Source: Thermoproteota archaeon
Lineage (GTDB): Archaea > Thermoproteota > Thermoprotei > Thermofilales > B9-G17
Length of the DNA stretch: 64,000 nucleotides
NCBI GenBank assembly: GCA_029258885.1
Contig: JAPDJW010000002.1
Location: 288,001-352,000 of the forward strand
Direction: 5' to 3'
Position numbers and translations under genes: made by a program. Positions 17,143-39,914 of this stretch are shown here, in pieces. The notes beneath the pieces were generated by a model. The model was not told the origin of the DNA and ran no database searches. It was given only the letters and a program-made list of their open reading frames with translations. The number at the start of each line of letters is the position of its first letter. Position 1 is the stretch's first letter.

Positions 17143-17500
17143 CCGCTAAGGTATAAGTCGCGTAAAACTCTATAAATATAATGTTTAAATTAACATCCAC
17201 ACCAAACAATCCAGCCCAGGATACGACGAGCCCTGATTCTGGCCCCTAACGTAACTATAGGAAGTCCCCTCTATGAGGTCTTCACAAAAACTAACCCAAA
17301 TATCCTCTAGACAGCCTTCATACGTACCCCTAGACCCTTGTTTACCAAGTTTATTAGATTAGTTAGAGAAATTCAGCCAGTATATTTTAATGGACTAAAA
17401 CGATACGAATGTCCTAGGATTGTATTGGCAGAAGGATCCACATCAACTTCCAAACGCGAAAGATTTTATCTTTCGTTTCTGGCAGACTTTAAGTTTTTCA

Positions 17501-17989: not shown

Positions 17990-18027
17990 ACAAGTCACAC
18001 CCCAATTATTTTTAATACAAGGAAAAA

Positions 18028-21000
18028 CTTTCAATATTCTCTTAAAATACACTATGTCGACTCTTGTCAGAGGCTTTAGGTCTGTTTTAACTCTTTTAAT
18101 ATTCTCTTGAAATACACCCATCTGCTGGAGCGCAGTACAGGGGTTGTAGTAAGATGTGCAATCTTTCAATATTCTCTTGAAATACTCCTAAAGAAGCTGA
18201 GAAGCTGACAAGGGAGTATGGTGACTTAGTATCTTTCAATATTCTCTTGAAATACTCTTATTGTGGGTGATAGTGTGGAGAGGTTTAGGCTACTTATTGC
18301 TTTCAATATTCTCTTGAAATACTCCACGTGGATATCGTGCTGGCTGTTATGGTTGAGTTCGCTATACTTTCAATATTCTCTTGAAATACTCGTGATGATG
18401 AAGTTTATACATTTAAAGTAAGTCGGAAGACGCTTTCAATATTCTCTTGAAATACTCCTGAAGAAGGAGGCTGAGAGGAAAAAGGTTTCTGTTAGCCTTT
18501 CAATATTCTCTTGAAATACTCAAGCCACGACGGTACAGCATACGTGGACAACATTAAGTTAAGCTTTCAATATTCTCTTGAAATACTCAGCTCTGTATAT
18601 CTATTATACAGCCAGTTAACTACTTCCCCTTTCAATATTCTCTTGAAATATTCTGTCGTGGCGTTCGTATCCGCCGCTAGAATGACCCTGCCCTCCCAGC
18701 CCGTCTTTCAATATTCTCTTGAAATACTCTAAGCTGAAATGCCACTACTATCCGGGCGGAAGATGTACACTTTCAATATTCTCTTGAAATACTCTGGTTT
18801 TTGTGGTAAGGAGACGGGAGACGACCGTGTATATATACTTTCAATATTCTCTTGAAATACTCGAAGTAATAGAATTGACAGTACGCTGGGCAAAACTCAG
18901 CCTACCTTTCAATATTCTCTTGAAATACTCCCTCTACACCAGTCATCCAATAACGGGCAATATTTGGCCTTTCAATATTCTCTTGAAATACTCTATCCGA
19001 TTGTTATTAGGGAGGATAGAGTTAAAGCGATGATTAATCTTTCAATATTCTCTTGAAATACTCTGACTGTGAGTGAATATCTGGATCTCCTGAAACTCGT
19101 TCACGTCTTTCAATATTCTCTTGAAATACTCTCAGCTACCTTTTCGCTCTCCTTGATTACATCTTCTAAATACTTTCAATATTCTCTTGAAATACTCTGA
19201 TAGCGTGCAGATCGAGTATCGAATAATTATATCTAACTTTCAATATTCTCTTGAAATACTCCTAAATTCGCTGGGAGACGCTGGAAGCTCGCCAAGTGAT
19301 CACTCCTTTCAATATTCTCTTGAAATACTCTCAACCATACGTCTAGCGAGTGGGGTGGACATGTTCTCACCTCCTACTTTCAATATTCTCTTGAAATACT
19401 CTGGAGAGCCTTCTCCGGTGGTTTGACAGAAGATTTATAGCTTTCAATATTCTCTTGAAATACTCCCCCCAAATCCCATACCGATGAAATATATTCAGTA
19501 TTTGCTGATAGCTTTCAATATTCTCTTGAAATACTCGCGAGCTCTCTCCTCAGTAAACCCTTGATGACTACAACCTTTCAATATTCTCTTGAAATACTCT
19601 TGAGATTGACGATTTCACGTATAAGTATGAGCGGTTCCTACTTTCAATATTCTCTTGAAATACTCGAGGGTAGGCTAGTATACTATGCAAAGCATGAGGA
19701 AGATCTTTCAATATTCTCTTGAAATACTCGATAATGGCGGGGGAAGTTTCTAAGGAAGTTTGGGAGTCTTTCAATATTCTCTTGAAATACTCGACTATAC
19801 ATCACCCGTAGCACACCTTCCAATGCGCGCTAGAGAAGACTTTACTTTCAATATTCTCTTGAAATACTCCTCCTCCCGCCCCACGATCCCAACCCCAAGA
19901 TAGTATTGTGTTCTTTCAATATTCTCTTGAAATACTCCGAGCATTATTACGATGCACACCCAAGGTTCATTTGTCCACTTTCAATATTCTCTTGAAATAC
20001 TCTAAAGTGGATGTGGGTTTACGCTAGGGAAAGAAAGGACACACTTTCAATATTCTCTTGAAATACTCTACATCACCTTATATTGTTATCCTTCTACCCA
20101 GTCTAAATACTTTCAATATTCTCTTGAAATACTCGTCCAAATGCTCAGATATTGTTATAAGTGTTTCATCAATTTCTTTCAATATTCTCTTGAAATACTC
20201 TCGGATTTTCTCGATTATCTACGGACAATACTATTCCACCTTTCAATATTCTCTTGAAATACTCGGAAAAGCCTTTTTTTCTTCACATGCTCCAGTGATT
20301 TAACTTTCAATATTCTCTTGAAATACTCTACTGTAAGTACTACATGGCCTACGCGGTAGCAATAATGAGGAGGCGGGTTCACTTTCAATATTCTCTTGAA
20401 ATACTCGCATCTACGACCCCCCACAACCCACGAGCAAGGAATTAGAAGCTTTCAATATTCTCTTGAAATACTCGCTGACTAGATTTTTAGCAGGTGGGGC
20501 ATTTGAATAATGACTTTCAATATTCTCTTGAAATACTCCTCCTAGGGATGTTGGGGAGTTGGTTGCTGAGAGGCTTGGTAAGCGACTTTCAATATTCTCT
20601 TGAAATACTCTAAACACTACAAGACCATGCTAACAGAGGAAGAGATCATAGAGAAGCTTTCAATATTCTCTTGAAATACTCTCAATATTCTCTTTGAGGA
20701 AAGAGGGGGAAATATCCGAGGAAGAATATATTCTTTCAATATTCTCTTGAAATACTCCCCCATGAAGCCGTTAAACCGAACAACGTATACGTTAAATTAC
20801 TTTCAATATTCTCTTGAAATACTCTGTTAGCTAAATATGAAAATTCATAGCTAAAATAAACACTTTCAATATTCTCTTGAAATACTCCACTGACTTTCTT
20901 CAGGTTTTTAACTCTGCGTTCTTGGACTTTCTTTCAATATTCTCTTGAAATACTCTTCCTCTATCTTATCCTTTTTGTCCTTCTTCACGGACTTCACTTT

Positions 21001-24000
21001 CAATATTCTCTTGAAATACTCAGGGCATGGCTCTAGACGTACCTAAGAATGAATATACACCAGCTTTCAATATTCTCTTGAAATACTCATCTTCTTCTCT
21101 AGGTCCTTAACCCTTTTAGACGACTTTCCTTTCAATATTCTCTTGAAATACTCAGATATCCAGGCATTTAGGTTCCGTTTCGGTAACGCCTTTCAATATT
21201 CTCTTGAAATACTCTAAAAGAAGAGGAAAAGTTAGCTATGCTGGATCTGCTTACTAACTTTCAATATTCTCTTGAAATACTCTCTTATTCACCCGAGCCA
21301 CGGCCTCTCTATTTTTTTTCACTTTCAATATTCTCTTGAAATACTCTTTACATCCTTGAACATTATACGCCATTCATCTACATCTTTCAATATTCTCTTG
21401 AAATACTCTTAGTGTCTCCATTTTTATCTTATATTGTTTCTGCAGCTGGAGTCTTTCAATATTCTCTTGAAATACTCTGCTGGTGTTTTCTTCGATGGTG
21501 GCTGCTGGCGTTGAATGGCTTTCAATATTCTCTTGAAATACTCAGTACGTATTTACACATATAGATGAATTCATAGTACTTGCGACTTTCAATATTCTCT
21601 TGAAATACTCGCGTGAAGTCTAGTTTTTTGAATGTTGTCTTATTATCAACTTTCAATATTCTCTTGAAATACTCGAGGAAAACTCTGAAAGAGGTTCAAA
21701 CCAGCAGTGTAACACCTTTCAATATTCTCTTGAAATACTCCCGCTGCAGTAAACAACTGTGTAAATTCACACTAGAAGAAATAACTTTCAATATTCTCTT
21801 GAAATACTCGTTACAATCAGCAGACCAGACTTCGAATACGCAGTTCTATACTTTCAATATTCTCTTGAAATACTCGTTTCAGAGGGGATGATGATCTTCA
21901 TCGGTTACAGTCTCAGCCTTTCAATATTCTCTTGAAATACTCTTTATACTCCCTTCTATATCTTATTTCTGAAAAACTAACTTTCAATATTCTCTTGAAA
22001 TACTCACAAGAAAAACGAGAACTACTAAGCATATGTAAAAGCTATGAGACTTTCAATATTCTCTTGAAATACTCCGGGGTTAGGCGGATACTTCCTCTGC
22101 TTAAGCTCCCACGCTTTCAATATTCTCTTGAAATACTCAAACTAAAATTCGAGGAATTCTGGGGAGTTTCTCCGGAGACTTTCAATATTCTCTTGAAATA
22201 CTCAATGAAGAAGGTGCCATGCCTCGTCGAGAAGATGACTACTTTCAATATTCTCTTGAAATACTCACTTAATGTTATCCACGTGTGTTGTACCATCGTG
22301 GCTTCTGACTTTCAATATTCTCTTGAAATACTCCTTAAAAAGTATATCTACGACCCGGAGTGCCACTGGGTTGCTTTCAATATTCTCTTGAAATACTCGC
22401 CACTAATAGATACGGTGGGGGCCCCCGCACAGAACATTATACTTTCAATATTCTCTTGAAATACTCAAACCAGAGAACCTCAGGGTAGACGTTACGGAAT
22501 TACCTGCTACTTTCAATATTCTCTTGAAATACTCGATTCGTAACTGTGTTAATGCAACCGCCATCCTTCGTATATACGACTTTCAATATTCTCTTGAAAT
22601 ACTCTCCTACAATCCTTCTCTCCTATATTCAAGTCCATCCCGACTTTCAATATTCTCTTGAAATACTCAATTCAATTAGCTCATCAAGGATAGTAGGGAT
22701 TACTCCTCTCTTTCAATATTCTCTTGAAATACTCCAAGAGGATAGTTAAAGCTGGTATCCATCCATTAGAGAAGAGCTTTCAATATTCTCTTGAAATACT
22801 CTACCGAGAAGAACAATAGCATTATTGTGCTAACATGCATTTCTTTCAATATTCTCTTGAAATACTCCGACAGCGTAAACAAAACGTGCAGCATGAAGCC
22901 GTGTAAACTGCTTTCAATATTCTCTTGAAATACTCATCGAATGTTGCATCAATGGTTGTTCAGAGCGGTACATCTTTCAATATTCTCTTGAAATACTCGA
23001 CAGGTCAAGTGTCTTACCTATGAAATTAACCTCTACCTCTACAGAGTACTTTCAATATTCTCTTGAAATACTCAACTAGTAACTATTAAGGTTAGAGGAG
23101 AGAATGGTAGAGCTTTCAATATTCTCTTGAAATACTCGTATGGTCGCAATCCGACCTCTTAAGGATATAGTAGATAAGTCTTTCAATATTCTCTTGAAAT
23201 ACTCTCCAGCGTTCATTTATGTGAAAAAATTGGAGGTGGGAGTACTTTCAATATTCTCTTGAAATACTCGTCATGTCCAACTGTCCTATGGACGCGGCCT
23301 CTAAAAGCACTTTCAATATTCTCTTGAAATACTCTCATACGTACCCGTCACGTATGTCTTGTAACTGTTAAACCTTTCAATATTCTCTTGAAATACTCAA
23401 TTGCTAGGTATCATATTGCATCTACCCAGCATCTAGCATCTTTCAATATTCTCTTGAAATACTCAAGAAGGGTGAACTTACACTAGGTGAGTTACTGACT
23501 ACTTTCAATATTCTCTTGAAATACTCTTACCCGAGAATGTCATTATCGTTACTTCTCGGGCGAATTCCTTTCAATATTCTCTTGAAATACTCAAGTTTTC
23601 TTCATTTCTGCGACCACCCTATAGATTTTTTAACTTTCAATATTCTCTTGAAATACTCGGAGCCAGCGAAAGTGAAGCCGAAGATACCCCGCGGAATAGC
23701 TTTCAATATTCTCTTGAAATACTCTAATCCAGATAGGATAAATATGGTGATTGTAGACACAAACTTTCAATATTCTCTTGAAATACTCTAAGGAGAAAAT
23801 GTGGAAGGAATGGGGGGAGTATCCAACTTTCAATATTCTCTTGAAATACTCCGAGAAATACACCGCGTTTCAAAAACTCTAAGGCCTGCTACTGAGCTTT
23901 CAATATTCTCTTGAAATACTCTTCACGATTTTTACCGTTATTGAATCGATATCCTGCTTTCAATATTCTCTTGAAATACTCGGACGCCACATTCGACGAC

Positions 24001-25227
24001 CAAATACAGACGCTAATAAATGACTTTCAATATTCTCTTGAAATACTCGAAGCTGTCGCCTAAAACATTAAAGCGGCTTAAAGTACTTTCAATATTCTCT
24101 TGAAATACTCAGAGGGCGTCAAGAGGTCGAGGGAGAAATGAGTGAGGTTATCTTTCAATATTCTCTTGAAATACTCCCTCTGCAGATAACAGGCGGCACA
24201 GTGAATGTTTCAGTAGCTCTTTCAATATTCTCTTGAAATACTCAGCTGGATATTAAAAGTGCTAGAAGAACGTTATAGAATTAGGACGGCTTTCAATATT
24301 CTCTTGAAATACTCCTTCTCGAGCCATTTTCTCCTATCTATTTTTAATACGCCCTTTCAATATTCTCTTGAAATACTCTTCGTCTGCGGGAAGCGTAGCT
24401 GGATATATAACTATATTTGTCTTTCAATATTCTCTTGAAATACTCTTGTGCTTACGGCTCCTGTGGGCGCAAGATATGCATGGTACTTTCAATATTCTCT
24501 TGAAATACTCCCCTGATATTTTCAATAATATACTTTAGATACTCTGGTTTATCTAGCGTATCTTTCAATATTCTCTTGAAATACTCCAAGTGAATAATTA
24601 TACACTCGGAGTATATAATAATGATGAAACCTTTCAATATTCTCTTGAAATACTCCTATAATACCAAACTGCCTACAGGTTCTCTCGATTTCCTTTCAAT
24701 ATTCTCTTGAAATACTCTCCAAATTTATTTTAACCATGCCTTCACCTACAGCTTCTTTCAATATTCTCTTGAAATACTCTCGCTTAATACTAAGCAGCAT
24801 GACATTATAACATGCACTTTCAATATTCTCTTGAAATACTCCTGGCGGTAGTATCGGTGTGGAGGCTTATGTCGGCGACTACTTTCAATATTCTCTTGAA
24901 ATACTCATGTAGCTATATTCTCCGTGTGGTCGATAAGATGATCTTTCAATATTCTCTTGAAATACTCTTGTCCACGTACGCCGAACCGTCGTGGCTTTGT
25001 ATCTTTAGTTCTTTCAATATTCTCTTGAAATACTCGAGTGTAAATACAAATGTCCGTACTGCGGTCAAGAATTCCTTTCAATATTCTCTTGAAATACTCG
25101 TGGTGCATTATCTAGGTCTAGTGTTCTGCTTTCCTTAGCTCTTTCAATATTCTCTTGAAATACTCTGGCTTACGCTGATGTTTCCGCAGTACAGAATCAT
25201 TACTTTCAATATTCTCTTGAAATACTC
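18028..25227 (-). CRISPR. CRISPR array 1: about 109 repeats and 108 spacers, transcribed leftward
   Basis: 25-bp repeat GAGTATTTCAAGAGAATATTGAAAG on the minus strand (plus: CTTTCAATATTCTCTTGAAATACTC); spacers mostly 36-47 bp; AT-rich leader on the right; degenerate repeats at 18028 and 18093. Confidence 0.99.
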
Positions 25228-25351
25228 CTATATGTTATTTTTCTCTTTTTGTATTTATTTGTTTTTATGAAATGGTTAGGTTCTTTTAAATTGTGCGCGT
25301 CTCTATCCTGTTATGATTGTAGCATGGATGCGCACGTTTTATTTTTTCTCT
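25228..25351 (-). promoter_or_regulatory. CRISPR leader of array 1
   Basis: AT-rich; shares CGTGCGCAT, GATAGA, ATTTAAA and AAAAGAGAAAAATAA with leader 2 at similar distances from the first repeat. Confidence 0.85.
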
Positions 25352-26035
25352 TTATATTATTTTTGAGTATGTTTCTAGGAGTATTCTCCCTAGTGGTGTT
25401 AGTTTTAGTGTTTTTGGTCGTTTTGATAACTCCTCTAGTAGTCCTGCGTATATTAGGTCTTGGGCTTGTCGGCTTATGCTTGATAGATCCTTATTCATCT
25501 TCCTTGCTAGCTCGTTCATAGGTATCTCGCCAACATTCGCTACCGTTTCTAATAGCTTAATTTTGCCCTTAGTTAATTCATCTATCGCGAATATTAGCTC
25601 CGATAGCATTGATATGTCCACTATATTCTCGAAATTCTCTGTCTCAACTTCTATCTTAATGTTTGGATTTCTATAGGATCTACAGGCAAGCATTACCGCT
25701 AATAGCAACTCTATTATGAGTATACGCATACCACCGCTTAAATTAACCACAACCTCATCGTATGTTTCAACTATACCCCTTATCGCTGGTATAAGTTTGA
25801 GCAATGCATCCGCAAAATCGTATACATTCACTGTATCCTCCTTAACCTCTACCTCCCTGCCATGATATTTGAAAACAAAATCCTTAACTGACCTAATAGC
25901 CTTCAAAGCCTTCTCCCCGATTGGCTCAAGAGTGAATAGAAAGAGTTTATCACCAGGATTCAAGCCCTCCCTAGTAATCATCCTTATTATAAATTTTTCA
26001 TCAAACCCTACGGTAGCCACTAAGGCTTTAGCCAT
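25352..26035 (-). CDS. csa3: CARF plus wHTH transcriptional regulator Csa3
   Basis: ATVGFDEKFIIR, NLSGGMR CARF motifs; C-terminal HTH (ELARKMNKDLSSISR). Confidence 0.9.
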   Translation of the reverse strand: MAKALVATVGFDEKFIIRMITREGLNPGDKLFLFTLEPIGEKALKAIRSVKDFVFKYHGREVEVKEDTVNVYDFADALLKLIPAIRGIVETYDEVVVNLSGGMRILIIELLLAVMLACRSYRNPNIKIEVETENFENIVDISMLSELIFAIDELTKGKIKLLETVANVGEIPMNELARKMNKDLSSISRQAQDLIYAGLLEELSKRPKTLKLTPLGRILLETYSKII

Positions 26036-26325
26036 AGCAACACCACAATATTAACAATTTAACTGAAACATAAATTTACTGAAAATTATCCTTTATGGCT
26101 TTTAAGTTACTAAAGATATAGCGATTCAGTTTAAATAATAGTGTTATGGATAGATGAAAGCTAATAATTAGCTACCCAATTTACTTGAATTATTTTTGCA
26201 TTTTTCCTTCTAAATTGTATCTGTCATACATAATTTTATGTTTTTGTCTTTTAATTTTTTGATATTTACAAATTTTTCATCTAAAAGAATATAAGTCAGT
26301 TTTACCATAAATATGAGGGGGTTCG

Positions 26326-26730
26326 ATGAACTCTCATAATAGAGAAATTATTTCAAGGATTTTTTCAGAGGAAGATTTAAAAAAAGCATTTGATAAATGT
26401 GTACGCTATCTTGCTGCTTATAGAATTGTTGAGGGTAACTTAGGTCTATTTGATAAGATGGCTAGATGTAGAGACTATAATGATTTTGTTAGCGCCATCT
26501 ATGAAGCTATGCGTGTAAAAGACAGAGTCCTCTCAAAACTTATCGAGGGAGTCGAGAAAAATCAATACGAGTTAATATTTAGGATTGAGGGCGATCTAAG
26601 AAAAGTCTTTGATATAGGCCAAGAGGATGTTGAAAAAATCTTTAAGTCTGCACTGGAAAACCCCCGAGTTGTTGGAACTGTTTTAGCCTCTCTCGCTTTA
26701 GCTTATAGTGGAATTCGTGTTAAGGGGTGA
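26326..26730 (+). CDS. csa5: Type I-A small subunit Csa5 (Cas11)
   Basis: 134-aa helical protein first in the Cascade operon, directly upstream of cas7. Confidence 0.75.
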   Translation: MNSHNREIISRIFSEEDLKKAFDKCVRYLAAYRIVEGNLGLFDKMARCRDYNDFVSAIYEAMRVKDRVLSKLIEGVEKNQYELIFRIEGDLRKVFDIGQEDVEKIFKSALENPRVVGTVLASLALAYSGIRVKG

Positions 26731-26736
26731 GAAAAT

Positions 26737-27702
26737 ATGGTTTATATACGGGTTTCGGGTAGGGCTATCGTAAATATTCATAGCGCTAATGCTGAAGGAT
26801 CTGTCGGAAACTATATGGGCTTAACAAAAATGTTTATTGTTCGCAGGACTCAGGATGGATACAATATTGTAGAGGATGTAGTAATTTCAGGTAACATGCT
26901 TAAACATTGGCATGCAGTCCGAGTAGTTGAAAGATTAAGAGATTTGAAATATAAAAAACTATGTAAATATTGTTCTAGATTTGTAATGTACAGATCTACG
27001 CTTGGATTTAAAGATGAATATGAGTTTATTAATGCTTGTGCTATAGAGGATCTTCACGGATTTCTTCAGCCGGATACTCAGGTTAGGAGAGAAAGTCTCG
27101 TGAAATTTGCTTTTATGATACCTATTGAGGAGATGAGAGCAGAATATGCTTCGGTAACTCATAATAGGGTAGTGGTAACGGAGAAAGGCAATATTCCTGC
27201 AAGAGAGCAGGCTATGATGGTTTTCAAGAGGGAATACGCGAGTGGAATCTATGGTTTTCTCTGTACAATGGATTTAGCATATGTGGGACGGCCCTTAGCT
27301 GATCCTCTTAACCCTAATAAAACTCTACCATTAGATGATCGTAAAATTAGGGCAAAACAAGCTATTCTTGCATTATCAGACATACTTACTGGCAGGTTTG
27401 GTGCAGCGGCTTCAAGAGCTATACCTACAATTAAGACTGAGGAATTTCTAGGAGTTATTAGTAAGCAGGCAATACCTAACCTTATTCACGGTTTCTATAA
27501 GGACTATATTGAGGAAAGCGGCAGAATATTAAAGAATATTATTGAAAATAAAGGCATCGAAAATATTAAAGTTTACGTTTCTGGCAACAAACCCATCGCT
27601 ATCATGAAGAAAATTTTACCAGGAGAGGCTTTAGAGGTTTGTAATTCCCCACTAGAAGCCTTAGCTAAGATGGCTAAGGTGTCCGAAACTTGGCTTACGT
27701 AG
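26737..27702 (+). CDS. cas7: Type I-A Cas7 (Csa2/DevR family)
   Basis: NIHSANAEG, ISGNMLKHWH, EDLHGFL, RRESLVKFAF, REYASGIYGF. Confidence 0.93.
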   Translation: MVYIRVSGRAIVNIHSANAEGSVGNYMGLTKMFIVRRTQDGYNIVEDVVISGNMLKHWHAVRVVERLRDLKYKKLCKYCSRFVMYRSTLGFKDEYEFINACAIEDLHGFLQPDTQVRRESLVKFAFMIPIEEMRAEYASVTHNRVVVTEKGNIPAREQAMMVFKREYASGIYGFLCTMDLAYVGRPLADPLNPNKTLPLDDRKIRAKQAILALSDILTGRFGAAASRAIPTIKTEEFLGVISKQAIPNLIHGFYKDYIEESGRILKNIIENKGIENIKVYVSGNKPIAIMKKILPGEALEVCNSPLEALAKMAKVSETWLT

Positions 27703-28514
27703 TTTTTGCTAAAATAAGATTTCCGATTTTTTCTATTAAACATCCAGAGGCATTTCAAATTAGATCATCGCTGTTCTTACCTCAACCTTCCACATTAATA
27801 GGAGCTTTAGCCTACTGTCTTGGAGTAAGTCAAAATATTGGATTAAATGCCTACAAGAGAGTTTTAGAGTATGTTTCAAACAAAAAAATCTTAGCAGCAA
27901 AGCCTTCACTTCTTAAAGATATTCCTCCCTTAACAGTTTCATCCATTGTTTTACGTAGATTTAGGATCGTTGATAAAGCATTTGAAACGAAGGAAAAGGG
28001 AGGAAGACCACCCATAAAGATACTTTATGAATATATCAATAAAGGAGAGATAGAGTCTGCAAGGAAAATAATCGAAGTTCAGCTAACTGATGCTTTTTAT
28101 AGAGAGTATATTTCTGGCTATGAAATTTTATGTGCTTGGGCTTTTAGAGATGACTTTGATTTTAATGAGGAACTGATCTACTTAATTCATAGGCTAGGAG
28201 ATACCGAATCTCTATGTAGCGTGATTAAAGTCTGGAAAGAGGAAGCTAAAGAAGCACGGAAGAAGATTATAGAAACTACTTTTGTTTCTCCTCTTAAGAA
28301 CGTGAAAACGTTGATTGGAAATTATGTAGCCATCAAAATGTGCAATGAACTGAGGAAGAAAGAGCTCTTCGCCATTCCGTATGAAATTACATACAGGAGT
28401 AGTGATGGTAAGCGCATTATGGTGATTAAGCCTACTACTATAAAAATTGAGTATGCATCTGAGGTGCCGGTTTTATGCACAAGCTATGGTGATATTGTTC
28501 AATTTCTGGGGTGA
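27690..28514 (+). CDS. cas5: Type I-A Cas5
   Basis: N-terminal FSIKHP...PQPSTLIGALAY and late RLGDTES RAMP motifs. Confidence 0.9.
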   Translation: MAYVVFAKIRFPIFSIKHPEAFQIRSSLFLPQPSTLIGALAYCLGVSQNIGLNAYKRVLEYVSNKKILAAKPSLLKDIPPLTVSSIVLRRFRIVDKAFETKEKGGRPPIKILYEYINKGEIESARKIIEVQLTDAFYREYISGYEILCAWAFRDDFDFNEELIYLIHRLGDTESLCSVIKVWKEEAKEARKKIIETTFVSPLKNVKTLIGNYVAIKMCNELRKKELFAIPYEITYRSSDGKRIMVIKPTTIKIEYASEVPVLCTSYGDIVQFLG

Positions 28515-28518
28515 AAAT

Positions 28519-29613: not shown

Positions 29614-29616
29614 ATT

Positions 29617-31353
29617 ATGGCTATGTCCTCTTTTTCTGAGTATTGGTCGGCTGTAGGAAAAATAGTTAAAGCTAGGGGGCATTCCCTTAAACGTTATAAG
29701 TTCTTTGAAGATGTCTGGGAGGCATTAGATGATGGGAAAAATGTTATTTTAATAGCTCCAACTGGCTGTGGCAAGACTGAGGCTACAACAGTACCATTTC
29801 TATATAACTTAATAAATGGTAATCGGCAGGCCTTTTCCTTAGTGTATACGTTACCTGCAAGATCCCTCGCATCCAACATGTATGATAGATTATGTAAATC
29901 GCTAAGGATTCTAGAATCTAAGGATATTGTTTGTAATATAGATTACGGAGAATTTTTAGAATTTAAACCCTATCTAGAAGGCGACGTTGTTGTAACAACA
30001 TATGACACACTTTTCTATACTTTCTATGGCTTTCGCAGATTAGGCTTTCACGTGCTACTTCATACAGGTAAAATTGCCGGCTCATACATAATATTTGATG
30101 AAGCCCAACTGTTACAAGATAACTTCTGGTATTCTCTAAGCCTTCTGCCAAAACATATTAGGGCTTTATGTAAGTGGAGGGCTCAGATAGTTGTTATGAC
30201 GGCAACGCTTCCAGATGTTTTATTGAAAGAGCTCAATAAATTTATGAAAAATAACGTTGAGGTTATATTTGCTGAAGATAAGCCCTCGAGGGGAAAACTT
30301 AGCGTTACAATAATGAATTCTAAAATTCCCATTAATGGTGAGGAATTACTGAAATTAATTTCTGGAGAGTTACCAGCTCTAATTGTTGTAAATACTGTTA
30401 GTAAGGCAGTTAAAATATATAAAAGCTTATATAATTGTGTTCATGGTAAGGGTATCGATTTGTTACTATTGCATTCTAGACTTAGGCTTGGAGTAAGGAA
30501 AGAAAGAGAGAAGTTTTTCGAGAGAAATAAGAAAGACAATATTATTGTTATTGCAACCCAAGTGGTTGAGGCTGGGTTAGATTATCATTTTAAGACGCTT
30601 TTAACAGAGCTGTCTCCTATAGATTCCTTAATACAGAGGCTGGGACGATGTGCTAGGAAAAGCGACGGTAAGGCATATGTGTTCATTAATCTTGATAAAG
30701 ATAGTAAAAAGATTTATCCGGATAATATCTTGAACATTTCTAAGGAGACTATCCTAAGATACCAAGATATTTTATGTGAGTCTGTTAGAAATGTTTTTAT
30801 CGCAAGTAAGTTAGTAAACGAGGTCTATACTGAGAGAGTAATTAACGAGCTCACTAAGCCTGTGATGAAAGAGATAAATAATGTTTCAATATTTATAGAC
30901 AACTTCTATGAATATATTTTCAAGGGTAGATTTGACAAAGACTTAAACTTGCTTAGATTAGGATTTGAAATAATATGCTGGTATGCTTCAGAAAATATTT
31001 TCAAGAGATTAATTAAGGGCGAAACTGTTGAATGCAGTATAGAAGATTTTAGAGATAACATTGTTAGGTTATCTTGTATGCTAAATATGAACAATAAAAA
31101 CATTCGTCTTCCTAAAGCGGTGTTGATTAATATAGAGGGGAATGAATGTTTACTGCTATTAGAAACTAATTTTATGCAGGAAAAAGTATATTTAAGGGTT
31201 AAGGAGAAGATTAGTAAAAATAATTTTCGTTTTCTTGAAGCAAAAAGTAGATATCCTAGGATCTTCCTCTTAAATCCGCATTTCTATGAAAGAAATACCT
31301 ATGGAGATCTTGGTGTTATTAGTCTTTGGAGGCCGGCGAGCTATGTTTCCTGA
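29617..31353 (+). CDS. cas3: Cas3' helicase
   Basis: APTGCGKT, DEAQ, MTAT, LLHSR, ATQVVEAGLD, QRLGRCAR. Confidence 0.95.
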   Translation: MAMSSFSEYWSAVGKIVKARGHSLKRYKFFEDVWEALDDGKNVILIAPTGCGKTEATTVPFLYNLINGNRQAFSLVYTLPARSLASNMYDRLCKSLRILESKDIVCNIDYGEFLEFKPYLEGDVVVTTYDTLFYTFYGFRRLGFHVLLHTGKIAGSYIIFDEAQLLQDNFWYSLSLLPKHIRALCKWRAQIVVMTATLPDVLLKELNKFMKNNVEVIFAEDKPSRGKLSVTIMNSKIPINGEELLKLISGELPALIVVNTVSKAVKIYKSLYNCVHGKGIDLLLLHSRLRLGVRKEREKFFERNKKDNIIVIATQVVEAGLDYHFKTLLTELSPIDSLIQRLGRCARKSDGKAYVFINLDKDSKKIYPDNILNISKETILRYQDILCESVRNVFIASKLVNEVYTERVINELTKPVMKEINNVSIFIDNFYEYIFKGRFDKDLNLLRLGFEIICWYASENIFKRLIKGETVECSIEDFRDNIVRLSCMLNMNNKNIRLPKAVLINIEGNECLLLLETNFMQEKVYLRVKEKISKNNFRFLEAKSRYPRIFLLNPHFYERNTYGDLGVISLWRPASYVS

Positions 31354-32176
31354 ATGTCAAGTGCTACAGGAAGTTTTAGGACTTAAACGTATCCCCTGTA
31401 AGCCCTGTATTGCTAAGCATTTTCCCTCATATTACAAGAAAAATTCCGGTATACAATTTATGGGCTGTTGGATAGCCCATACCGCTTTAGCGTATTATGA
31501 ATTGAAAAGATGTAGACGGTGCATAGAAAGAATTCTAAATAAGTTAGGGATTTCATGGAACGCTTTAGAGTTACTAGTGCTATTACACGATGCAGGAAAA
31601 CTTTCAGAGAAATACGGCTTTTCAAATATTCAGCATAACATCTTATCAGCTGTCATCTCGATAAAATGTTTGGAAGATTCTAAGATATTGAATAAACGAG
31701 AAAGATATGCTGTCTCCTTGGCTATAGCTCTACATCATGAGGCATATCATTGGAGAGAAGTCTGTAGATATAATTTACACTTTGCAAGTAGCATTAAAAT
31801 ACAACCTTTTACCTTAAGAAAAAACTATCAACAGGCACTTATCTGTTTATCTAAGATCGTCTCTAAGATTCAATGCTCGGAGGAGGTCTTAGAAATACTA
31901 ACAAGGATTAAGCCAACATATAGCAGAGCCGATGTGGAAACAGTCAAAATAAATTTAATTCCACTTAAAAATCTGAGACCGTTAGCTATCCCCTTATATT
32001 GGCTTTTATTTCTGGCAGATAATAGAGCGGCAAGTGCAAGAAATGGGGTAGAAAAATATTGGAGGAATATTCTGAACAGATTATCAGAAGATATTAGAAA
32101 GAACCCAGAGAAACTTGGAAAAGAACTTTTTAGTAAACTTTCGCACGGGTATATTGCGTTAAGCCTGCTTTGCTGA
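31343..32176 (+). CDS. cas3'': Cas3'' HD nuclease
   Basis: AH...LHDAGK...HNILSA...HHEA, ADNRAAS; start taken at ATG 31343. Confidence 0.9.
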   Translation: MFPECQVLQEVLGLKRIPCKPCIAKHFPSYYKKNSGIQFMGCWIAHTALAYYELKRCRRCIERILNKLGISWNALELLVLLHDAGKLSEKYGFSNIQHNILSAVISIKCLEDSKILNKRERYAVSLAIALHHEAYHWREVCRYNLHFASSIKIQPFTLRKNYQQALICLSKIVSKIQCSEEVLEILTRIKPTYSRADVETVKINLIPLKNLRPLAIPLYWLLFLADNRAASARNGVEKYWRNILNRLSEDIRKNPEKLGKELFSKLSHGYIALSLLC

Positions 32177-32416
32177 TTAACTAGAAAAACTGTAATATGA
32201 TAATAGCATGGAGTTATCGGCTAAGATTATTGATATGAAAGGTTAATTAGTTTCCTTAACAAATAGTTTATAGCATTATAATGGAATATAGGCATATTGC
32301 TTTTTAATGGATATTGCTTACCATTCATTAAGGATGTTTAATTGCATATATTAAGCAAGAAATACCATAATTATAATCTTTTTACCATTTATTAAAGATG
32401 TTTTCTGGTATTTAAT

Positions 32417-33364
32417 ATGATGATTCTCTATCGTTTGGATAGTGCTTTGAAGCGTGTTAATTTGTTGGTTTCTCGTGTTGGGGTTTCTAGTGAGCTTAGG
32501 GGTTGGTGTTGGGATAGGCCTCCTGTTGAGCCTCCTGTTCATGGTGTTTATTTGCCGATTTATGAGCTTGCTAATAGGTATTGTGAGAGTATGCGTGATA
32601 TTTATTTGAGGTATGTTGAGGGTGTTGAGGTTAAGCCTAATGTTGCTATGGTTGAGGGTAGGGTTTATCATGAGGTTGTGAAATCTGTTCTTACACTTGC
32701 TAAGAAGGTTGTGTATGGCTTGGATATTGTTGAGGGCTTTAGGCTTCTTCAGATTATGTCTTCCAGGAGGAAAAGCTATCTTAATGGCATCTTGAAGTCC
32801 TGTTTGAAGCCTATTGATGCATCTGATGTTGAGAGTGAGGTTGCTAGGCTTAAGGCTAGGGCGTGTAATTTATGGAACTACTTGACGCTCTACGTCTCAT
32901 CTAACCTGGATTTGGTTAGGTCCCGCTATAGGACTATTGAGCTCGACTCTCTGGTTGCTCTCGCTATCCCCCATATTGTTGAGTTTAAGGTTGATGGTAC
33001 GTTGCTTGGTTTGAGCCGTGAGCTTTCTGTTGATGTATTTAATCCACAGAATGTTGTTCTCGAGATTAAGACGGGTAGGAGGATGCGTTTCCATAGGTTT
33101 GTTGTCGGAGGCTATGCTTTAGCTCTTGAGTCCGCTAATGAGGTTCCGGTTAATCTTGGCGCTGTAATGTACATACACTTTGATCAACGTAATCTGCCGG
33201 TTGTAACATTGAACTATCATTTCATTGGTGATGAGATTAGGAGGGATTTCCTGGAGCTTAGGGATACTGCTCTCGAGATAATCTATAATGAGAGAGATCC
33301 AGGACTCCCTCCAAAGTGCTACAAGTACTGTGTCTATAGGGAGTATTGTAGGGGAAGGCGTTGA
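32417..33364 (+). CDS. csa1: Cas4-like protein Csa1 (Cas4a)
   Basis: LRGWCWDRPPV, YCESMRDIYL, EIKTG, C-terminal CYKYCVYREYC. Confidence 0.9.
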   Translation: MMILYRLDSALKRVNLLVSRVGVSSELRGWCWDRPPVEPPVHGVYLPIYELANRYCESMRDIYLRYVEGVEVKPNVAMVEGRVYHEVVKSVLTLAKKVVYGLDIVEGFRLLQIMSSRRKSYLNGILKSCLKPIDASDVESEVARLKARACNLWNYLTLYVSSNLDLVRSRYRTIELDSLVALAIPHIVEFKVDGTLLGLSRELSVDVFNPQNVVLEIKTGRRMRFHRFVVGGYALALESANEVPVNLGAVMYIHFDQRNLPVVTLNYHFIGDEIRRDFLELRDTALEIIYNERDPGLPPKCYKYCVYREYCRGRR

Positions 33365-34389
33365 AGGTTCTCGTTGTTGAGAGGTATGGATGCTTTATCG
33401 GCTGTAGAAACGGTAAGGTCGTGGTTAGGAGTAAGCGTGAAAAGCTCGCCGAGGAGCCAGCCGTTAACTTGAGGGTTGTCCGCGTTAAATGTAGGGGTAC
33501 ATCTATTTCAGGGGATTTTATTAGGCTTGCTGTTAGACACGGTATTTTTACGGTTTTTACCTCTAGCTCTGGTAGGCCTATAGGTGTTGTAGCACCATTT
33601 ATTCCTAAGTCGAGTATTCTCGTCCGTAGGGAGCAGTATAAGGCCTATAGCGACTATAGGTGTATTGAGCTTGCGAGGGGCTTCATATATGGGAAGATAC
33701 ATAACCAGGAGAGCCTGCTTAGGAGCGTTATTAAGAGTAAACGTAGCCTGAATACGGGGGTAAAGCTTATTCTAGTGAGTACTATTGAGGAGTTAAGGGA
33801 TCTTAGGAACAGCCTATACGCTAGGAGTTTTAATGATGTACAGGAGGCTCGAACTGAAATATTGTCCATTGAGGCTATAGCTGCGGAGAAGTATTGGAGC
33901 TGCTGGAAGACGATACTTCCCGAGGAATTGGAGTTTCCGGGCAGGAGGAAGCGCTCCGATATGCCCGAGGATCCGGTTAACATTATGCTCAACTATCTGT
34001 ATTCGATTCTCGCCTCAGAGGTGTGGATAGCGTTGCTGGTATCTGGATTGGATCCGATAGCAGGCTTTCTACATATGGATAGCCCTAGGCGGCCTGGATT
34101 AGTATATGATTTGATGGAGGAGTTTAGAGCGCCGATTGTCGATAAGGTTGTTTTGAATATAGCGTTGAAGGAGGGTGGTTCACTTAAGTCCTGGATAGAT
34201 GATAGGATGAGGCTGACTAAGGAGGCACGTATGTTGCTGAGCAGTAGTATGCTGGAGAGGCTTGAGGTTAAGTACAGCTATGGTGGGGTTAAGCTGCCGT
34301 TTAGACTGCATATTTTAAGGCAGAGTAGGAAGATTGTACGTTATCTACGTGGAATGTCTCCACGATACGTCCCGTTTAGGTGGAAGTAG
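33361..34389 (+). CDS. cas1: Cas1 integrase
   Basis: IEAIAAEKYW, DPVNIMLNYLY, GFLH, LVYDLMEEFR. Confidence 0.96.
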   Translation: MKVLVVERYGCFIGCRNGKVVVRSKREKLAEEPAVNLRVVRVKCRGTSISGDFIRLAVRHGIFTVFTSSSGRPIGVVAPFIPKSSILVRREQYKAYSDYRCIELARGFIYGKIHNQESLLRSVIKSKRSLNTGVKLILVSTIEELRDLRNSLYARSFNDVQEARTEILSIEAIAAEKYWSCWKTILPEELEFPGRRKRSDMPEDPVNIMLNYLYSILASEVWIALLVSGLDPIAGFLHMDSPRRPGLVYDLMEEFRAPIVDKVVLNIALKEGGSLKSWIDDRMRLTKEARMLLSSSMLERLEVKYSYGGVKLPFRLHILRQSRKIVRYLRGMSPRYVPFRWK

Positions 34390-34686
34390 TTGGCTAGGGA
34401 AACCCTAGTTATATACGATATAAGCGATGACGGGTTAAGGCTTAAGGTAAGCAAGGTCTGCGAGTCGTTCGGCCTCGTTAGGATACAGAAGAGCGCGTTC
34501 TTGGGGAAGATGGAGAGTAGCTATAGGAAGGAGCTTATAGCTAAGCTTAGAATGTTGCTTAACAGGGAGGGGTGTGATAGGGACAATATACAGGTATTCG
34601 TCTTCAGCAGCCAATGCCTATGCGATAGGGTAATTATAGGCAGACAGTTCGGTGTAAAAGTTGAGGAGAGACTGCTATACATCTGA
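34390..34686 (+). CDS. cas2: Cas2
   Basis: LVIYDISDD, RIQKSAF. Confidence 0.95.
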   Translation: MARETLVIYDISDDGLRLKVSKVCESFGLVRIQKSAFLGKMESSYRKELIAKLRMLLNREGCDRDNIQVFVFSSQCLCDRVIIGRQFGVKVEERLLYI

Positions 34687-35269
34687 AATCCTAATCGATG
34701 TAACGGATGTAAAACAGTACTTCTTCTGCCCGAGAATAGTATACTTCAACCACGTATTAGGCTACTACGAGAGAACAACGGAAAGTGAGGTTGAGGGAAA
34801 GGAGGTACACGAGGAACTATGGAATAAGGAGAAAAGGAGAAAGACGATCCTGAAGAAGAGAAGACTAAGCGGCTACGAGAAGATATTCGGCTTAAGGCTC
34901 TACTCAAGAAGACTAAGGCTTAAGGGGATATTGGACTGCCTAGCATATAGGGATAAAGAGTACGTACCGATAGAGTATAAGGAGACAAACTATCCAGGAT
35001 ACCTACCTGCAAACCATAAGTATCAGCTAGTAGCCTACTCACTATTAGTCGATGAGACGTACAATACGATAGTCAGATACGGATATATATACTACTCAAA
35101 ATCCGATAAACTAGCTAAAGTAAAGCTAACGATCGATATGAAAAGATACGTTAGGGAAACAGTGGATAAGATAATTAATATAATTATTAATGAATATCTA
35201 CCACCTGTAAGAACTAGGAAAAGCCGATGCATAAACTGTGGATACTATAAAATATGCCAGAGAGTATAA
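34661..35269 (+). CDS. cas4: Cas4 nuclease
   Basis: DVKQYFFCPR, GILD, PIEYK, QLVAY, CINCGYYKIC. Confidence 0.95.
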   Translation: MRRDCYTSEILIDVTDVKQYFFCPRIVYFNHVLGYYERTTESEVEGKEVHEELWNKEKRRKTILKKRRLSGYEKIFGLRLYSRRLRLKGILDCLAYRDKEYVPIEYKETNYPGYLPANHKYQLVAYSLLVDETYNTIVRYGYIYYSKSDKLAKVKLTIDMKRYVRETVDKIINIIINEYLPPVRTRKSRCINCGYYKICQRV

Positions 35270-35400
35270 CATATTTTAAGCAGACGCCAGAATTATAGAC
35301 ATTATTAAAAGCCTAAATTTCAGTCAAGCTACTAAAGAACTTTAAGTTAATGCGTTTTAATAGGTAAGTATATTTAAGCAACCGTTTATTCATAGTGAAA

Positions 35401-35534
35401 TATTTAAAAAGAAAAACAATAATGCGTGCGCATTCTAACTCAGCATAGTACGAGATAGAAAACGGCACGGTATTTAAATAACTCGCAGAACGAAAATAAT
35501 GCTTAAATAATCAAAAGAGAAAAATAAACATAAT
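35401..35534 (+). promoter_or_regulatory. CRISPR leader of array 2
   Basis: AT-rich; homologous to leader 1 (CGTGCGCAT at 35425, AAAAGAGAAAAATAA near the first repeat). Confidence 0.85.
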
Positions 35535-38500
35535 GTGTATTTCAAGAGAATATTGAAAGCATATACATCACGATTCTCCTTACGTCTTTCAATTAAATAC
35601 TGTGTATTTCAAGAGAATATTGAAAGTCCTCAATCCAAGTCGGCCGTCCAACGTAGAATGGAATCGTGTATTTCAAGAGAATATTGAAAGTTCACGGAAC
35701 TGTGGATCCTCAACCAGAAGTTTCGGTATGTCGTGTATTTCAAGAGAATATTGAAAGCCAGCTCAAATGCCACATATGCGGTAAGGTGTTTGAGGGGGTG
35801 TATTTCAAGAGAATATTGAAAGCTTATAAACCTCCTCGACCGCCCCGGTTAAAGTGTTGGTGTATTTCAAGAGAATATTGAAAGGATATTTGGCACATAT
35901 CCTCTACAGCTTTAACGTATATGTCGTGTATTTCAAGAGAATATTGAAAGTCAAATTCCAGTAGTGCGAAAACTCCGGGGTCTCGGTGTATTTCAAGAGA
36001 ATATTGAAAGAAAACAGCTAGAGGGTCAGGGACATGATTAGTAGGCGTGTGTATTTCAAGAGAATATTGAAAGTACGCTTATCAGAGCGGTGTAGTCGCC
36101 GCCGTTTGTGAGTGTGGGTGTATTTCAAGAGAATATTGAAAGCTGCGCTTATGAATTCTTCTAGGAACTCACGTACCTTAGGTGTATTTCAAGAGAATAT
36201 TGAAAGCTATTCCATACAGCAACGAAGGGGAAAATACTATGCCAAGGTGTATTTCAAGAGAATATTGAAAGATGTATAATTATTTCTCCATCCACCCACC
36301 ATCACCCCGCATGGGTGTATTTCAAGAGAATATTGAAAGTCTTTTGAAAATAGATCAAACATACTTAATTTAAAGCCTTCTTTAGTGTATTTCAAGAGAA
36401 TATTGAAAGGCCATCACTCGTAATAGCCTGTATAGCTAGGCGGCCGTGTATTTCAAGAGAATATTGAAAGCTGAAACACTGTGCAATTTATCTTAAACGA
36501 AAATGCTAAAGTGTATTTCAAGAGAATATTGAAAGGCGTACTCGTACACGTTTACACTGTGCAATCTATTAAACGTGTATTTCAAGAGAATATTGAAAGA
36601 TCTATCCAGCGCCCTAAACTGATGCTCCGTAATATGGAGTGTATTTCAAGAGAATATTGAAAGTGTTTAATCATGATATCACTGAACTTTATTTTGTTGT
36701 CTCCGGTGTATTTCAAGAGAATATTGAAAGTCCTTAACGCTAATACGTTAGTTAGAGTCTCTGAACTTACTGTGTATTTCAAGAGAATATTGAAAGTAGA
36801 ATGCTTCTCAGCATCCGCCGACACTTCACAAGTGTATTTCAAGAGAATATTGAAAGGCGGGTAGCGTTTGCTCAAAAGTGATTTCTACATTAGTCCATTC
36901 GTGTATTTCAAGAGAATATTGAAAGTTATAACAAGCTGATTCGCTGAAGCATTAACAATAATCCTAGTGTATTTCAAGAGAATATTGAAAGTTTTTTAAT
37001 TGTTTGCGATAGCCGCGGCTAGAGCGATGGTGTATTTCAAGAGAATATTGAAAGAGGAAGGTTGAGACGCCGAGTAAAGAGATTGTTAGTGAGAAGTGTA
37101 TTTCAAGAGAATATTGAAAGCTCCCCGAAAACGATTTCCTCCATTATGCTTAGAATTAGGTGTATTTCAAGAGAATATTGAAAGTTATCATTCAATAGTG
37201 GCTTTAAACTAACAATAACAAATAGTGTATTTCAAGAGAATATTGAAAGGAATTATTTATACTCCGCCCCCACTTCTCCCGGACACGGCCGTGTATTTCA
37301 AGAGAATATTGAAAGTCTAACTTAACATGGACCTTAAGCGGTTTAAAGACTTGTGTATTTCAAGAGAATATTGAAAGCTTCAATAAGATAACGGACTATC
37401 GCTATTTCATCAAGTAGTGTATTTCAAGAGAATATTGAAAGTCTACTACGTCAACCCGGGCTTCATAATTGCGGATGCTAAGGCGTGTATTTCAAGAGAA
37501 TATTGAAAGGAGCTTATCGTAAATACGGCAAGGGGAATAGTAGCAACAGTGTATTTCAAGAGAATATTGAAAGGGACAGAATAAACCACCGCTACATCAA
37601 ACAATTCATAACAGTGTATTTCAAGAGAATATTGAAAGAGTTGTATAAATCTAATAATGCTAGAATATCTTCTCTCTTGTGTATTTCAAGAGAATATTGA
37701 AAGTGTATTGTTTCACCTGTGCTATTAACTACTTTAAGAGTGTATTTCAAGAGAATATTGAAAGTAAGTCGAAAACTGCATCGGCATTGAAAAACCACCT
37801 TGCATAGGTGTATTTCAAGAGAATATTGAAAGAGACACCGGCGGCGTACTCACTAACGTAGCAGCGCTTAAGTGTATTTCAAGAGAATATTGAAAGCCTA
37901 ATACCCAAACACACCACCCAATAAACCCAAAAACCCCAGTGTATTTCAAGAGAATATTGAAAGTATTATATCGGGGCTATGTGTATGGCCACCAGTCGGC
38001 GCGGGTGTATTTCAAGAGAATATTGAAAGATGGTAGAACTTTAATCTACCCACCAAAGGAGTATCAAAAGAAGTGTATTTCAAGAGAATATTGAAAGGTA
38101 ACACTCCAGCTGTCAACATAATCCCAATTAGGTGTATTTCAAGAGAATATTGAAAGTCTTTCTTAGCTTTTTTATTGCATCCTCTGGCTGCATAATAGTG
38201 TATTTCAAGAGAATATTGAAAGGTTCTAGTAACGGGCGTAGGTCATGGAAATCAAACGACTTTCAGTGTTATTTCAAGAGAATATTGAAAGGCAAGTGCT
38301 GATGCAAGCGGTGATTTCTACGTTACAGCAGAGTGTATTTCAAGAGAATATTGAAAGATCTATCTTGAGTACGCCCGGCATATATAATCACCCTTTCGTG
38401 TATTTCAAGAGAATATTGAAAGTTGAACCATCTTATCCACCTTTCAGCTTTTCAGTCTCAAGGTGTATTTCAAGAGAATATTGAAAGTTGGATGATTTAT

Positions 38501-39660
38501 ATAGCGATAAAAAGCTTATAGCAGTTTTTGGTGTATTTCAAGAGAATATTGAAAGAATCAGTATGATTATACGGGAAATGGAGATTGGTGGACTCCTAGT
38601 GTATTTCAAGAGAATATTGAAAGGCTATCTCCTTACCGAAATCAGTAAGCCTTATAATCCTAGGTGTATTTCAAGAGAATATTGAAAGAGTAATCTCGCT
38701 TATCTCCTCCATAAGCCAGACTAACATGTGTATTTCAAGAGAATATTGAAAGGTGTCCATTTTCGTGGCATACTATCACTTTTAACTTAAAAGTGTATTT
38801 CAAGAGAATATTGAAAGACAGTCCTGAAGCATTTCTATTTCCATCGCCTAGAAGTCCGTGTATTTCAAGAGAATATTGAAAGACCAAACCGGTCTCGTTT
38901 AGATAGTCGTAGAGATCCATTAGTGTATTTCAAGAGAATATTGAAAGTAACTGAGAGGGGGATGAGAGTGCTTGAGCTGGTTATTGAAAGTGTATTTCAA
39001 GAGAATATTGAAAGGGTGGCTGCTTTAATAGACCCAGACACGATTGAACGCTGTCGGTGTATTTCAAGAGAATATTGAAAGATACTTAAATATACGTTTT
39101 CGAAGGCATGTAATGTGCTAGGTGTATTTCAAGAGAATATTGAAAGCATACACTAGAGGTTACCAAACAAGGTTTCGAGCCATAGTGTATTTCAAGAGAA
39201 TATTGAAAGGAGATACAGTTGAGTGTCGTAGTATTCCAGTTCATCTGTATTTCAAGAGAATATTGAAAGCTTCCCCTGTAACTTTTTTCACGAAATCCTT
39301 AGCCCACCCGTGTATTTCAAGAGAATATTGAAAGGCCGCCGCAAAAGCCATGCATCCCGAACTCCCAGAAAGCTGGGTGTATTTCAAGAGAATATTGAAA
39401 GCGTCCACGACGAGCATCCCACGTACGTCTGTCCATTCTGCGTGTATTTCAAGAGAATATTGAAAGACTTATCTACTATATCTTTAAGAGGTCTGATTGC
39501 GACCATACGTGTATTTCAAGAGAATATTGAAAGTTTTGAACATGCCAGTTTCTTCCCGCATTCTCCCATGCCTAGAGTATTTCAAGAGAATATTGAAAGG
39601 TAATTAGGTTGCTTACGTAGCTGTTGCTGTAGCCCGAGTATTTCAGGAGAATATTGAAAG
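35535..39660 (+). CRISPR. CRISPR array 2: about 64 repeats and 63 spacers, plus a degenerate terminal repeat near 39696-39722
   Basis: 25-bp repeat GTGTATTTCAAGAGAATATTGAAAG; the last two repeats (39575, 39636) begin GAG. Confidence 0.99.
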
Positions 39661-39914
39661 TAAGCCTTCCAAGAGGCATTAAAACTGTATATCGATAGCA
39701 ATTTCAAAAGAATTATTGAATTTTCAAAATACAGTCATTACAAGTATAGTTAAGGTATGATTTTTGGCGTATATGTTAATGCTATGATTAGAGTACCTGA
39801 TATGTGGATATCTATAGATGGAGTGTAAAGATTGTTTGTTTAGTAGGGTATCAAATGTTTTAGACAAATATTCTTATCAGTTCCTATAGAATTGTAATAA
39901 TTGGGTATTGGCGA

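Follow-up and report, generated by a model that had tools for sequence, protein, structure and literature searches.

The stretch of DNA considered here, referred to below as the window, comprises 64,000 nucleotides (nt) of the genome of a hydrothermal-vent archaeon of the Thermoproteota (assembly GCA_029258885.1, contig JAPDJW010000002.1, positions 288,001 to 352,000), and it carries a type I-A CRISPR-Cas module (CRISPR standing for short palindromic repeats that are clustered and regularly interspaced) in which two arrays read outwards and both leaders lie inside. We propose that the cassette of cas genes between the arrays was flipped in situ by one reciprocal crossover between the two inverted arrays, a reading to which we would give a probability of roughly 0.6. 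A one-base difference between the repeats of the two arrays switches reciprocally near both outer ends, the connectivity of the locus is opposite in related strains, and the junctions are reproducible; that the event took place within one molecule, and as a single crossover, is what we infer from these observations.

An exhaustive, mismatch-tolerant scan for the 25-nt repeat places 109 repeats in array 1 (18028-25227), which is transcribed from the minus strand, and 64 in array 2 (35535-39660), which lies on the plus strand; genome-wide there are 173 copies of this repeat family, all of them inside these two arrays, and there is no other array. The main repeat of array 1, given in minus-strand sense as GAGTATTTCAAGAGAATATTGAAAG, is exact in 106 of the 109 copies, and that of array 2, GTGTATTTCAAGAGAATATTGAAAG, in 60 of the 64. 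These two types, which start GAG and GTG respectively, are identical at 24 of 25 positions and differ at position 2. The departures in array 1 are a member of the GAG block at 18629 with a private G to A change at position 3, and the two trailer-most repeats (18093 and 18028), which start GTG and each have one further private change. In array 2 the repeats at 38267 and 39245 have private changes within positions 1-3, whilst the two trailer-most repeats are of the GAG type, that at 39575 exactly and that at 39636 with one extra change. On the left, therefore, the 107 GAG repeats are followed at the trailer by two of the GTG type, and on the right a 62-repeat GTG block is followed by two of the GAG type; if the flip is reversed, position 2 becomes uniform in either array. 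This pattern is not chance drift, because neither array has more than one boundary, because the two boundaries are mutually reciprocal, and because the trailer types are the flank-specific types of related strains. An earlier sequence-only reading of this DNA had drawn attention to the pattern, and every repeat type and coordinate that it gave proved correct on the rescan.

The polarity of the arrays is marked by the ATTGAAAG handle (8 nt) at the end of the repeat and by degenerate repeats at the outer ends, and it is confirmed by a spacer that other assemblies of the same strain have in addition at the csa3-proximal end of array 1. On their inner sides are paralogous A/T-rich leaders (25228-25351 and 35270-35534), both of which have the conserved end AAAAGAGAAAAATAA.CATA as well as a CGTGCGCAT motif. 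The repeat end, the inner leaders and the addition of spacers at the leader end are all those of a paired-array type I-A module.

Contigs of very closely related strains were found by scanning metagenome contigs for the repeat and by looking up exact flank and Cas proteins, and they come from several hydrothermal-vent and sediment data sets. Among 60 species-representative genomes of relatives that were searched there was only a weak match (65-72%) to part of the left flank, and none belonged to the genus of the window; a scan of genome contigs for the repeat gave no match. Identity between the window and the metagenomic relatives is 99.2% over 9.9 kb of the right flank (40787-50724, contig L025), 92% for the ArsR-like gene, 97.4% for csa1-cas4 with leader 2 (contig L023) and 93.3% at the DNA level for csa3 with leader 1, the Csa3 proteins being 92.5% identical; the left flank is shared only over 17421-18027 (~610 nt), at 95.7%.

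In these relatives the arrays at the left flank are GTG throughout (L014 with 13 repeats, L015, L021, and L020 with 43), and those at the right flank, beside the ArsR-like gene and cas6, are all GAG (L016, which equals L026, with 19 repeats, L025 with 28, L027 with 11, L028, and L029 with 9). The two stray repeats at each outer end of the window are thus of exactly the type proper to that flank in relatives. The leader on the cas4 side feeds GTG repeats in relatives (L023 and L024) and the leader on the csa3 side feeds GAG repeats (L030), which is the same pairing as in the window.

The connections between leaders and flanks can be followed further in the metagenome assembly ERZ584659. Its cas4-leader array (L023) is of a GTG...GAAAC form, with a private last base of C instead of G in 6/6 repeats, and this variant is found elsewhere only in the left-flank array L020 (ERZ584659 NODE_14207, 51-2834), where the 34 leader-side repeats end GAAAC and the nine oldest end GAAAG, a polarised sweep of a single base. 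The csa3-leader array of ERZ584659 (L030) is GAG...GAAAG, like the right-flank array L025. It would appear from these repeat variants that in the ERZ584659 strain the left flank is where the cas4 array terminates, and that the csa3 GAG array matches the right-flank array. The connections in the window are the opposite, with the cas4 array running to the right flank and the csa3 array to the left, and with leader-flank links reversed between strains the block between the arrays should therefore be oppositely oriented in them. Since csa3 with its leader, and csa1-cas4 with its leader, are orthologous in window and relative, it would be the same leaders that have changed sides. Furthermore it is the lineage of the window that appears to be the rearranged one, because the window has the mismatched trailer stubs and the arrays of the relatives are uniform. 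The sequence-only reading had proposed that ~21.4 kb, including the two leaders and the genes csa3 to cas4, were flipped and that the arrays thereby swapped trailers, and had suggested a comparison with related strains; the reversed leader-flank connectivity in ERZ584659 supports that flip, the relatives showing the opposite orientation and uniform flank arrays.

The base that was swept in L020 is the last base of the repeat and lies within the conserved ATTGAAAG handle. A further contig, L013 (Ga0180302_10127242), has two GTG-type repeats ending GAAAT beside unrelated coding sequence, with no similarity to the leaders or flanks of the window, and may be a further array variant or belong to another organism.

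Both junctions of the window are found in other assemblies. The left one is present in L019, a Logan contig of 9058 nt (run SRR22064146), as four GAG repeats followed by two GTG repeats and the flank, with spacers identical to those of the window, and on alignment of the contigs of run X1 to the window it matches 17001-18391 without differences. The right one is present in L031, a 40-kb contig of the European Nucleotide Archive (ENA) assembly ERZ25515786, as seven repeats of the GTG block, then a pair of GAG repeats, then right-flank DNA for 11 kb; over 11.5 kb it has no mismatches to the window. In array 1, next to the leader on the csa3 side, two other assemblies of the same strain (L017 and L018) carry a single additional spacer (TACTTGAAATGCTTTCGG...), and the first 14 spacers of array 2 are unchanged in the other assemblies of the strain. 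As this spacer is absent from the window, its presence suggests that those assemblies were not derived from the window's own, though they may still come from the same campaign; its position at the leader end argues that array 1 was still acquiring spacers after the inversion.

The original layout of the locus, which the relatives appear to keep, would have been the left-flank gene, a GTG array, a leader, cas4-cas2-cas1-csa1, the interference genes, csa3, a leader, a GAG array, the ArsR-like gene and cas6. In the ancestry of this genome a repeat of the left array would then have undergone a single reciprocal homologous crossover with one of the right, downstream of the variable second base, in a stretch of 23 bases common to the two repeats. 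The arrays are oppositely oriented, as an inversion demands, and the repeats at 18163-18187 and 39509-39533, which the sequence-only reading had also picked out as the crossover sites, are identical over positions 3-25. The segment that would have been inverted, now 18188-39508, comprises the two leaders, the genes from csa3 through cas4 and, of each array, the part nearest its leader. Each flank would have retained its own trailer stub of two good repeats, plus the degenerate terminal repeat on the right, and there would have become continuous with the other array's body, leader and repeat type. Function would have been preserved, with nothing broken and spacer uptake continuing, since leaders, promoters and genes moved as one. 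The features of the locus from left to right are as follows.

17501-17989, minus strand: left-flank gene, 162 amino acids (aa) from an ATG at 17989, no Pfam match.
18028-18117, minus strand: putative GTG-type remnant of the original left array, repeats 18093-18117 and 18028-18052 with the spacer between them; relatives are all-GTG at the left flank.
18163-18187, minus strand: left junction repeat, starts GAG; proposed crossover within positions 3-25, the 23 nt common to both types.
18163-25227, minus strand: GAG block of array 1, 107 repeats, leader-proximal end at 25227.
25228-25351, minus strand: leader of array 1, csa3 side, orthologous to the L030 leader, which feeds GAG repeats.
25352-26035, minus strand: csa3, CARF/wHTH regulator (Pfam Csa3_N).
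26326-32176, plus strand: type I-A interference genes, namely csa5-like, cas7 (csa2), cas5, cas8a2/csa4, cas3' helicase and putative cas3'' (296 aa).
32417-35269, plus strand: adaptation genes csa1, cas1, cas2 and cas4, with Pfam matches.
35270-35534, plus strand: leader of array 2, cas4 side, orthologous to the L023 and L024 leaders, which feed GTG repeats.
35535-39533, plus strand: GTG block of array 2, 62 repeats.
39509-39533, plus strand: right junction repeat, starts GTG; proposed reciprocal crossover site.
39575-39660, plus strand: putative GAG-type remnant of the original right array, repeats 39575-39599 and 39636-39660; relatives are all-GAG at the right flank.
39698-39724, plus strand: degenerate terminal repeat, orthologous to the relatives' terminal repeat GAGTGTTTCAAGAGAATATTGAATT; the array end is anchored to the same flank in all strains.
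39915-41705, plus strand: right flank outside the inverted block, ArsR-like DUF7347 gene and cas6.

Together the plus-strand cas genes from the csa5-like gene to cas4 occupy 26326-35269. Pfam matches are to DevR/Csa2, Cas5, Csa4, Cas3 helicase, Csa1, Cas1, Cas2, Cas4, Csa3_N and Cas6; two genes without a Pfam match owe their names to position alone, one of 296 aa behind cas3' (cas3'') and one of 134 aa ahead of cas7 (csa5). The set is that of a type I-A module, with cas3 split into a helicase gene and a further, putative HD gene. As the alignment of the degenerate terminal repeat is ambiguous by one base, its position 2 was left unused as a marker of repeat type.

There are several points that weigh against an inversion by a single crossover. 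Both crossovers lie at the third repeat from the trailer, a position which, for crossovers falling at random in long arrays, needs the extra assumption that the arrays were short at the time or that spacers were lost later. The small size of the stubs may well reflect the later loss of old internal spacers, with the polymorphic trailer 'anchor' repeats being kept; that old spacers were indeed lost in these lineages is shown by the degenerate terminal repeat on the right, which is shared with relatives although no trailer spacers are. It is known that an array is most stable at its trailer end (PMC8047081), and with this the persistence of no more than two units of the old type per side is in keeping. 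The parental arrangement seen in close relatives is linked by repeat variants (position 2 and the private last-base C) and not by a contig that spans flank, array and cas genes, coverage is uneven among the three ERZ584659 contigs concerned (6.8, 12.3 and 19.2), so that this assembly may contain more than one strain. An all-against-all BLAST of spacers, trailers included, gave none common by descent to the window and its relatives, and the history of the arrays is therefore not traceable spacer by spacer. Finally, at least one further event, the replacement of the interference module described below, separates the strains, and this may be part of the same exchange.

Shared spacers had been considered as proof of descent, and what was found were overlapping protospacers, which are independent acquisitions; array-2 spacer 12 of the window and spacer 29 of L020, for example, have the same start and are 43 and 39 nt long. 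A physical overlap of leader-side with flank-side contigs (L023 with L020, L030 with L025) was also looked for, and only repeat-derived words were in common. Within the window, spacer 32 of array 1 and spacer 61 of array 2 (39467-39508) are identical at 40 of 42 positions over their full length and in the same orientation, the latter spacer adjoining the right junction repeat on its leader side; the two are probably independent acquisitions from related viruses.

The region between csa3 and csa1 differs between the strains. Homology with relatives breaks off at ~26073 and resumes at ~32378, and the block 26074-32377 is uncovered by the contigs of any relative at >=88% identity. The relative L030 (1-5728) has a different type I-A set, in which Cas7 and Cas3' are 27% and 29% identical to those of the window, and its interference genes are on the strand of csa3, whereas those of the window are divergent from csa3 and co-directional with csa1-cas4. 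On these comparisons the interference module is strain-specific, with relatives at 99% flank identity carrying another set. A low-depth contig of 314 nt that is identical to the cas3' region of the window is present in an unrelated marine run of 2017 (X3 record 20), which argues that the window-type module circulates.

These observations bring in the alternative that survives best, in which the cassette was replaced in flipped orientation. A donor block from another strain or another copy of the chromosome, consisting of part of an array, a leader, cas genes, a leader and part of an array, would have been integrated by two crossovers, one in each array; as the module is pseudo-symmetric, with outward-reading arrays of almost identical repeats, the donor could pair either way, and the product would be the same as that of an inversion, with the inner block and its spacers being of donor origin. 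It is favoured by interference genes that the relatives do not share, by the absence of spacers common by descent and by the circulation of the module, and reassortment of CRISPR loci between strains has been reported in populations of Sulfolobus islandicus (PMC2946923). However, at least 10-20 kb would have to be taken up, and homologies of 23 nt would have to sustain two crossovers independently; the divergence of csa3 (93%) and csa1-cas4 (97%) is within the range of the flanks (92-99%) and gives no clear donor signature, and a replacement of its own, confined to the interval from csa3 to csa1, can account for the difference in modules. A single intramolecular crossover and a double crossover with a flipped donor are inseparable from sequence, and we regard the latter as possible though distinctly the less likely. 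A more general form of this idea, which is offered only tentatively, is that arrays act as homology arms indifferent to orientation and so may let whole cas cassettes be swapped between strains, the flip being the record of such an exchange and the exchange having delivered the module 26074-32377. If this were true, the inverted-array layout that is common in Thermoproteota would both shield cas genes from deletion between arrays and serve as a landing pad for cassette swaps.

Returning to inversion of the resident cassette, it could be asked whether the flip is one state of a programmed and recurrent switch that uses CRISPR repeats as inversion sites at appreciable frequency, and the sequence-only reading had suggested that the locus was possibly still switchable. 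The substrate is abundant, with thousands of inverted repeat pairs (109 x 64), and run X1 contains a loose end of 19 nt with a head-to-head join of repeats at 23971. Repeated flips at arbitrary repeats would nevertheless leave several alternating GAG and GTG blocks, yet a single boundary marks either array of the window, and the contigs of relatives, with up to 43 and 28 repeats, are free of boundaries; the three assemblies of the strain agree in orientation, and among the scanned open reading frames (ORFs) in or beside the block none encodes a recombinase. The ORFs of >=80 aa scanned at 25352-35269 were cas genes or had no match, and no recombinase family was found among them or among the scanned ORFs of the flanks. 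The two junctions are 21.4 kb apart and the evidence on orientation comes from contigs: those of run X1 include no alternative junction at 18163-18187 and no informative loose end there, though contigs drop rare variants and a rare minority form is possible. Switching of this kind therefore finds no support and seems very improbable. The 19-nt end at 23971 (AGAGTATTTCAAGAGAATA), a palindrome-like join inside a repeat, was set aside as too short to interpret; it is not a simple snap-back of that locus, as base 23982 does not fit.

An account without any rearrangement, in which the leader-proximal repeats mutated from T to A in array 1 and from A to T in array 2 and the changes spread by duplication of repeats during spacer uptake, is hardly credible: polarised single-base sweeps do occur in this repeat family, as in the G to C change in all 34 newer repeats of L020, but exactly reciprocal changes at one of 25 positions would be needed, and the relatives' cas4 leader would be predicted to feed the right-flank array, whereas it feeds the GTG...GAAAC array, which ends at the left flank, and GAG repeats, the right-flank type, are those fed by the csa3 leader. 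An assembly artefact, with the assembler jumping between arrays at the 25-nt repeat they have in common to give a false inversion, is just as hard to accept: the genome may have come from the run that matches it best, which leaves the re-assemblies less than fully independent, but the repeat is shorter than the assembler word length (31 for Logan), so spacer-repeat-spacer paths are read directly, a Logan contig and the separate ENA assembly between them recover both junctions without mismatches, which argues against the misassembly that the sequence-only reading had wished to exclude, the re-assemblies differ from the window by one new spacer, and a false join would not produce the pattern of single-nucleotide differences within the junction repeats.

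Some observations concern the genes that flank the module. In the public annotation the gene of the left-flank protein (P0004, 206 aa) has its start at 18121, within the trailer of the array, and its first 44 residues are a translated spacer and two CRISPR repeats; calls in relatives are of 162 aa, as obtained from the ATG at 17989. Synteny with relatives on the left stops after this one gene, the next gene of the relatives being an alpha/beta-hydrolase (L020:3482-4963) that is absent from the whole genome of the window, and leftward of 17421 the window has an ORF of 282/304 aa, a Macro-domain gene and a radical SAM gene (SAM, S-adenosylmethionine). On the right, a SAM-dependent methyltransferase near 43880 is split into two ORFs (43525-43953 and 43934-44281) by an extra A in a run of A; it is intact, at 251 aa, in the relative L025, with 755 of 757 positions otherwise identical, and the split sequence is identical in the independent assembly L031.

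The mechanism proposed for the flip is ordinary homologous recombination between inverted repeats and is not a new one; what is new is a well-supported natural case of the two arrays of one module swapping trailers and flipping the cas cassette. It provides natural evidence that the two arrays of one CRISPR-Cas module can recombine, and that with inverted arrays the outcome is a viable flip and not the loss of cas genes, which is an argument for paired arrays with leaders inside and outward reading as a safe layout and bears on why they are common in Thermoproteota. After such an event the trailer and the body of an array have different histories, and the chronological reading of arrays, strain typing by trailer spacers, and the inference of orientation or ownership from repeat variants can all be misled. 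A one-base difference between sister arrays that switches near both trailers would be a cheap marker with which to screen other genomes.

It is well known that a crossover between inverted homologous repeats, such as ribosomal RNA operons or copies of insertion sequences, inverts the DNA between them. The present case differs in that the tract of homology is only 25 nt, though in many copies, and in that the inverted segment is the immune system's own cassette. Zivanovic and colleagues are said to have noted, in 2002, CRISPR-like 'LCTR' clusters near the borders of rearrangements in Pyrococcus. No description of a cas cassette inverted between inverted arrays was found in the full-text literature searched, the coverage of which is incomplete.

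The deletion and duplication of spacers within arrays, together with the stability of the trailer 'anchor' (PMC8047081), resemble what is described here in that CRISPR repeats are the substrate, homologous recombination is the presumed process and polymorphic trailer repeats persist; those events take place between direct repeats of one array, whereas here there are two opposed arrays and 21 kb that includes the cas genes. Recombination of CRISPR loci between strains has been described for Sulfolobus islandicus (PMC2946923) and as order-divergence events by Kupczok et al. 2015 (PMC4524480). The likeness lies in mosaic arrays whose leader-side and trailer-side parts have different histories, but what was inferred there is exchange among strains, with locus and orientation unchanged, and neither an exchange between the two arrays of one module nor a flip of the cassette is described.

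The closest parallel is perhaps Haloferax volcanii, in which, as experiments have established, the cas cluster was deleted by recombination between the flanking CRISPR loci P1 and P2 (Stachler et al. 2017, PMC5435918, citing earlier work). In both cases the repeats of two arrays that flank cas genes recombine, a short repeat homology suffices and the content of the arrays is rejoined at a repeat. Whilst in Haloferax the cas operon was lost under self-targeting selection, which implies direct arrays, the arrays of the window are inverted and all its cas genes are kept, so that recombination between them would have led to a harmless inversion with a reciprocal exchange of trailers, and the event would have occurred in a natural population and been recorded there by a one-base polymorphism of the repeat.

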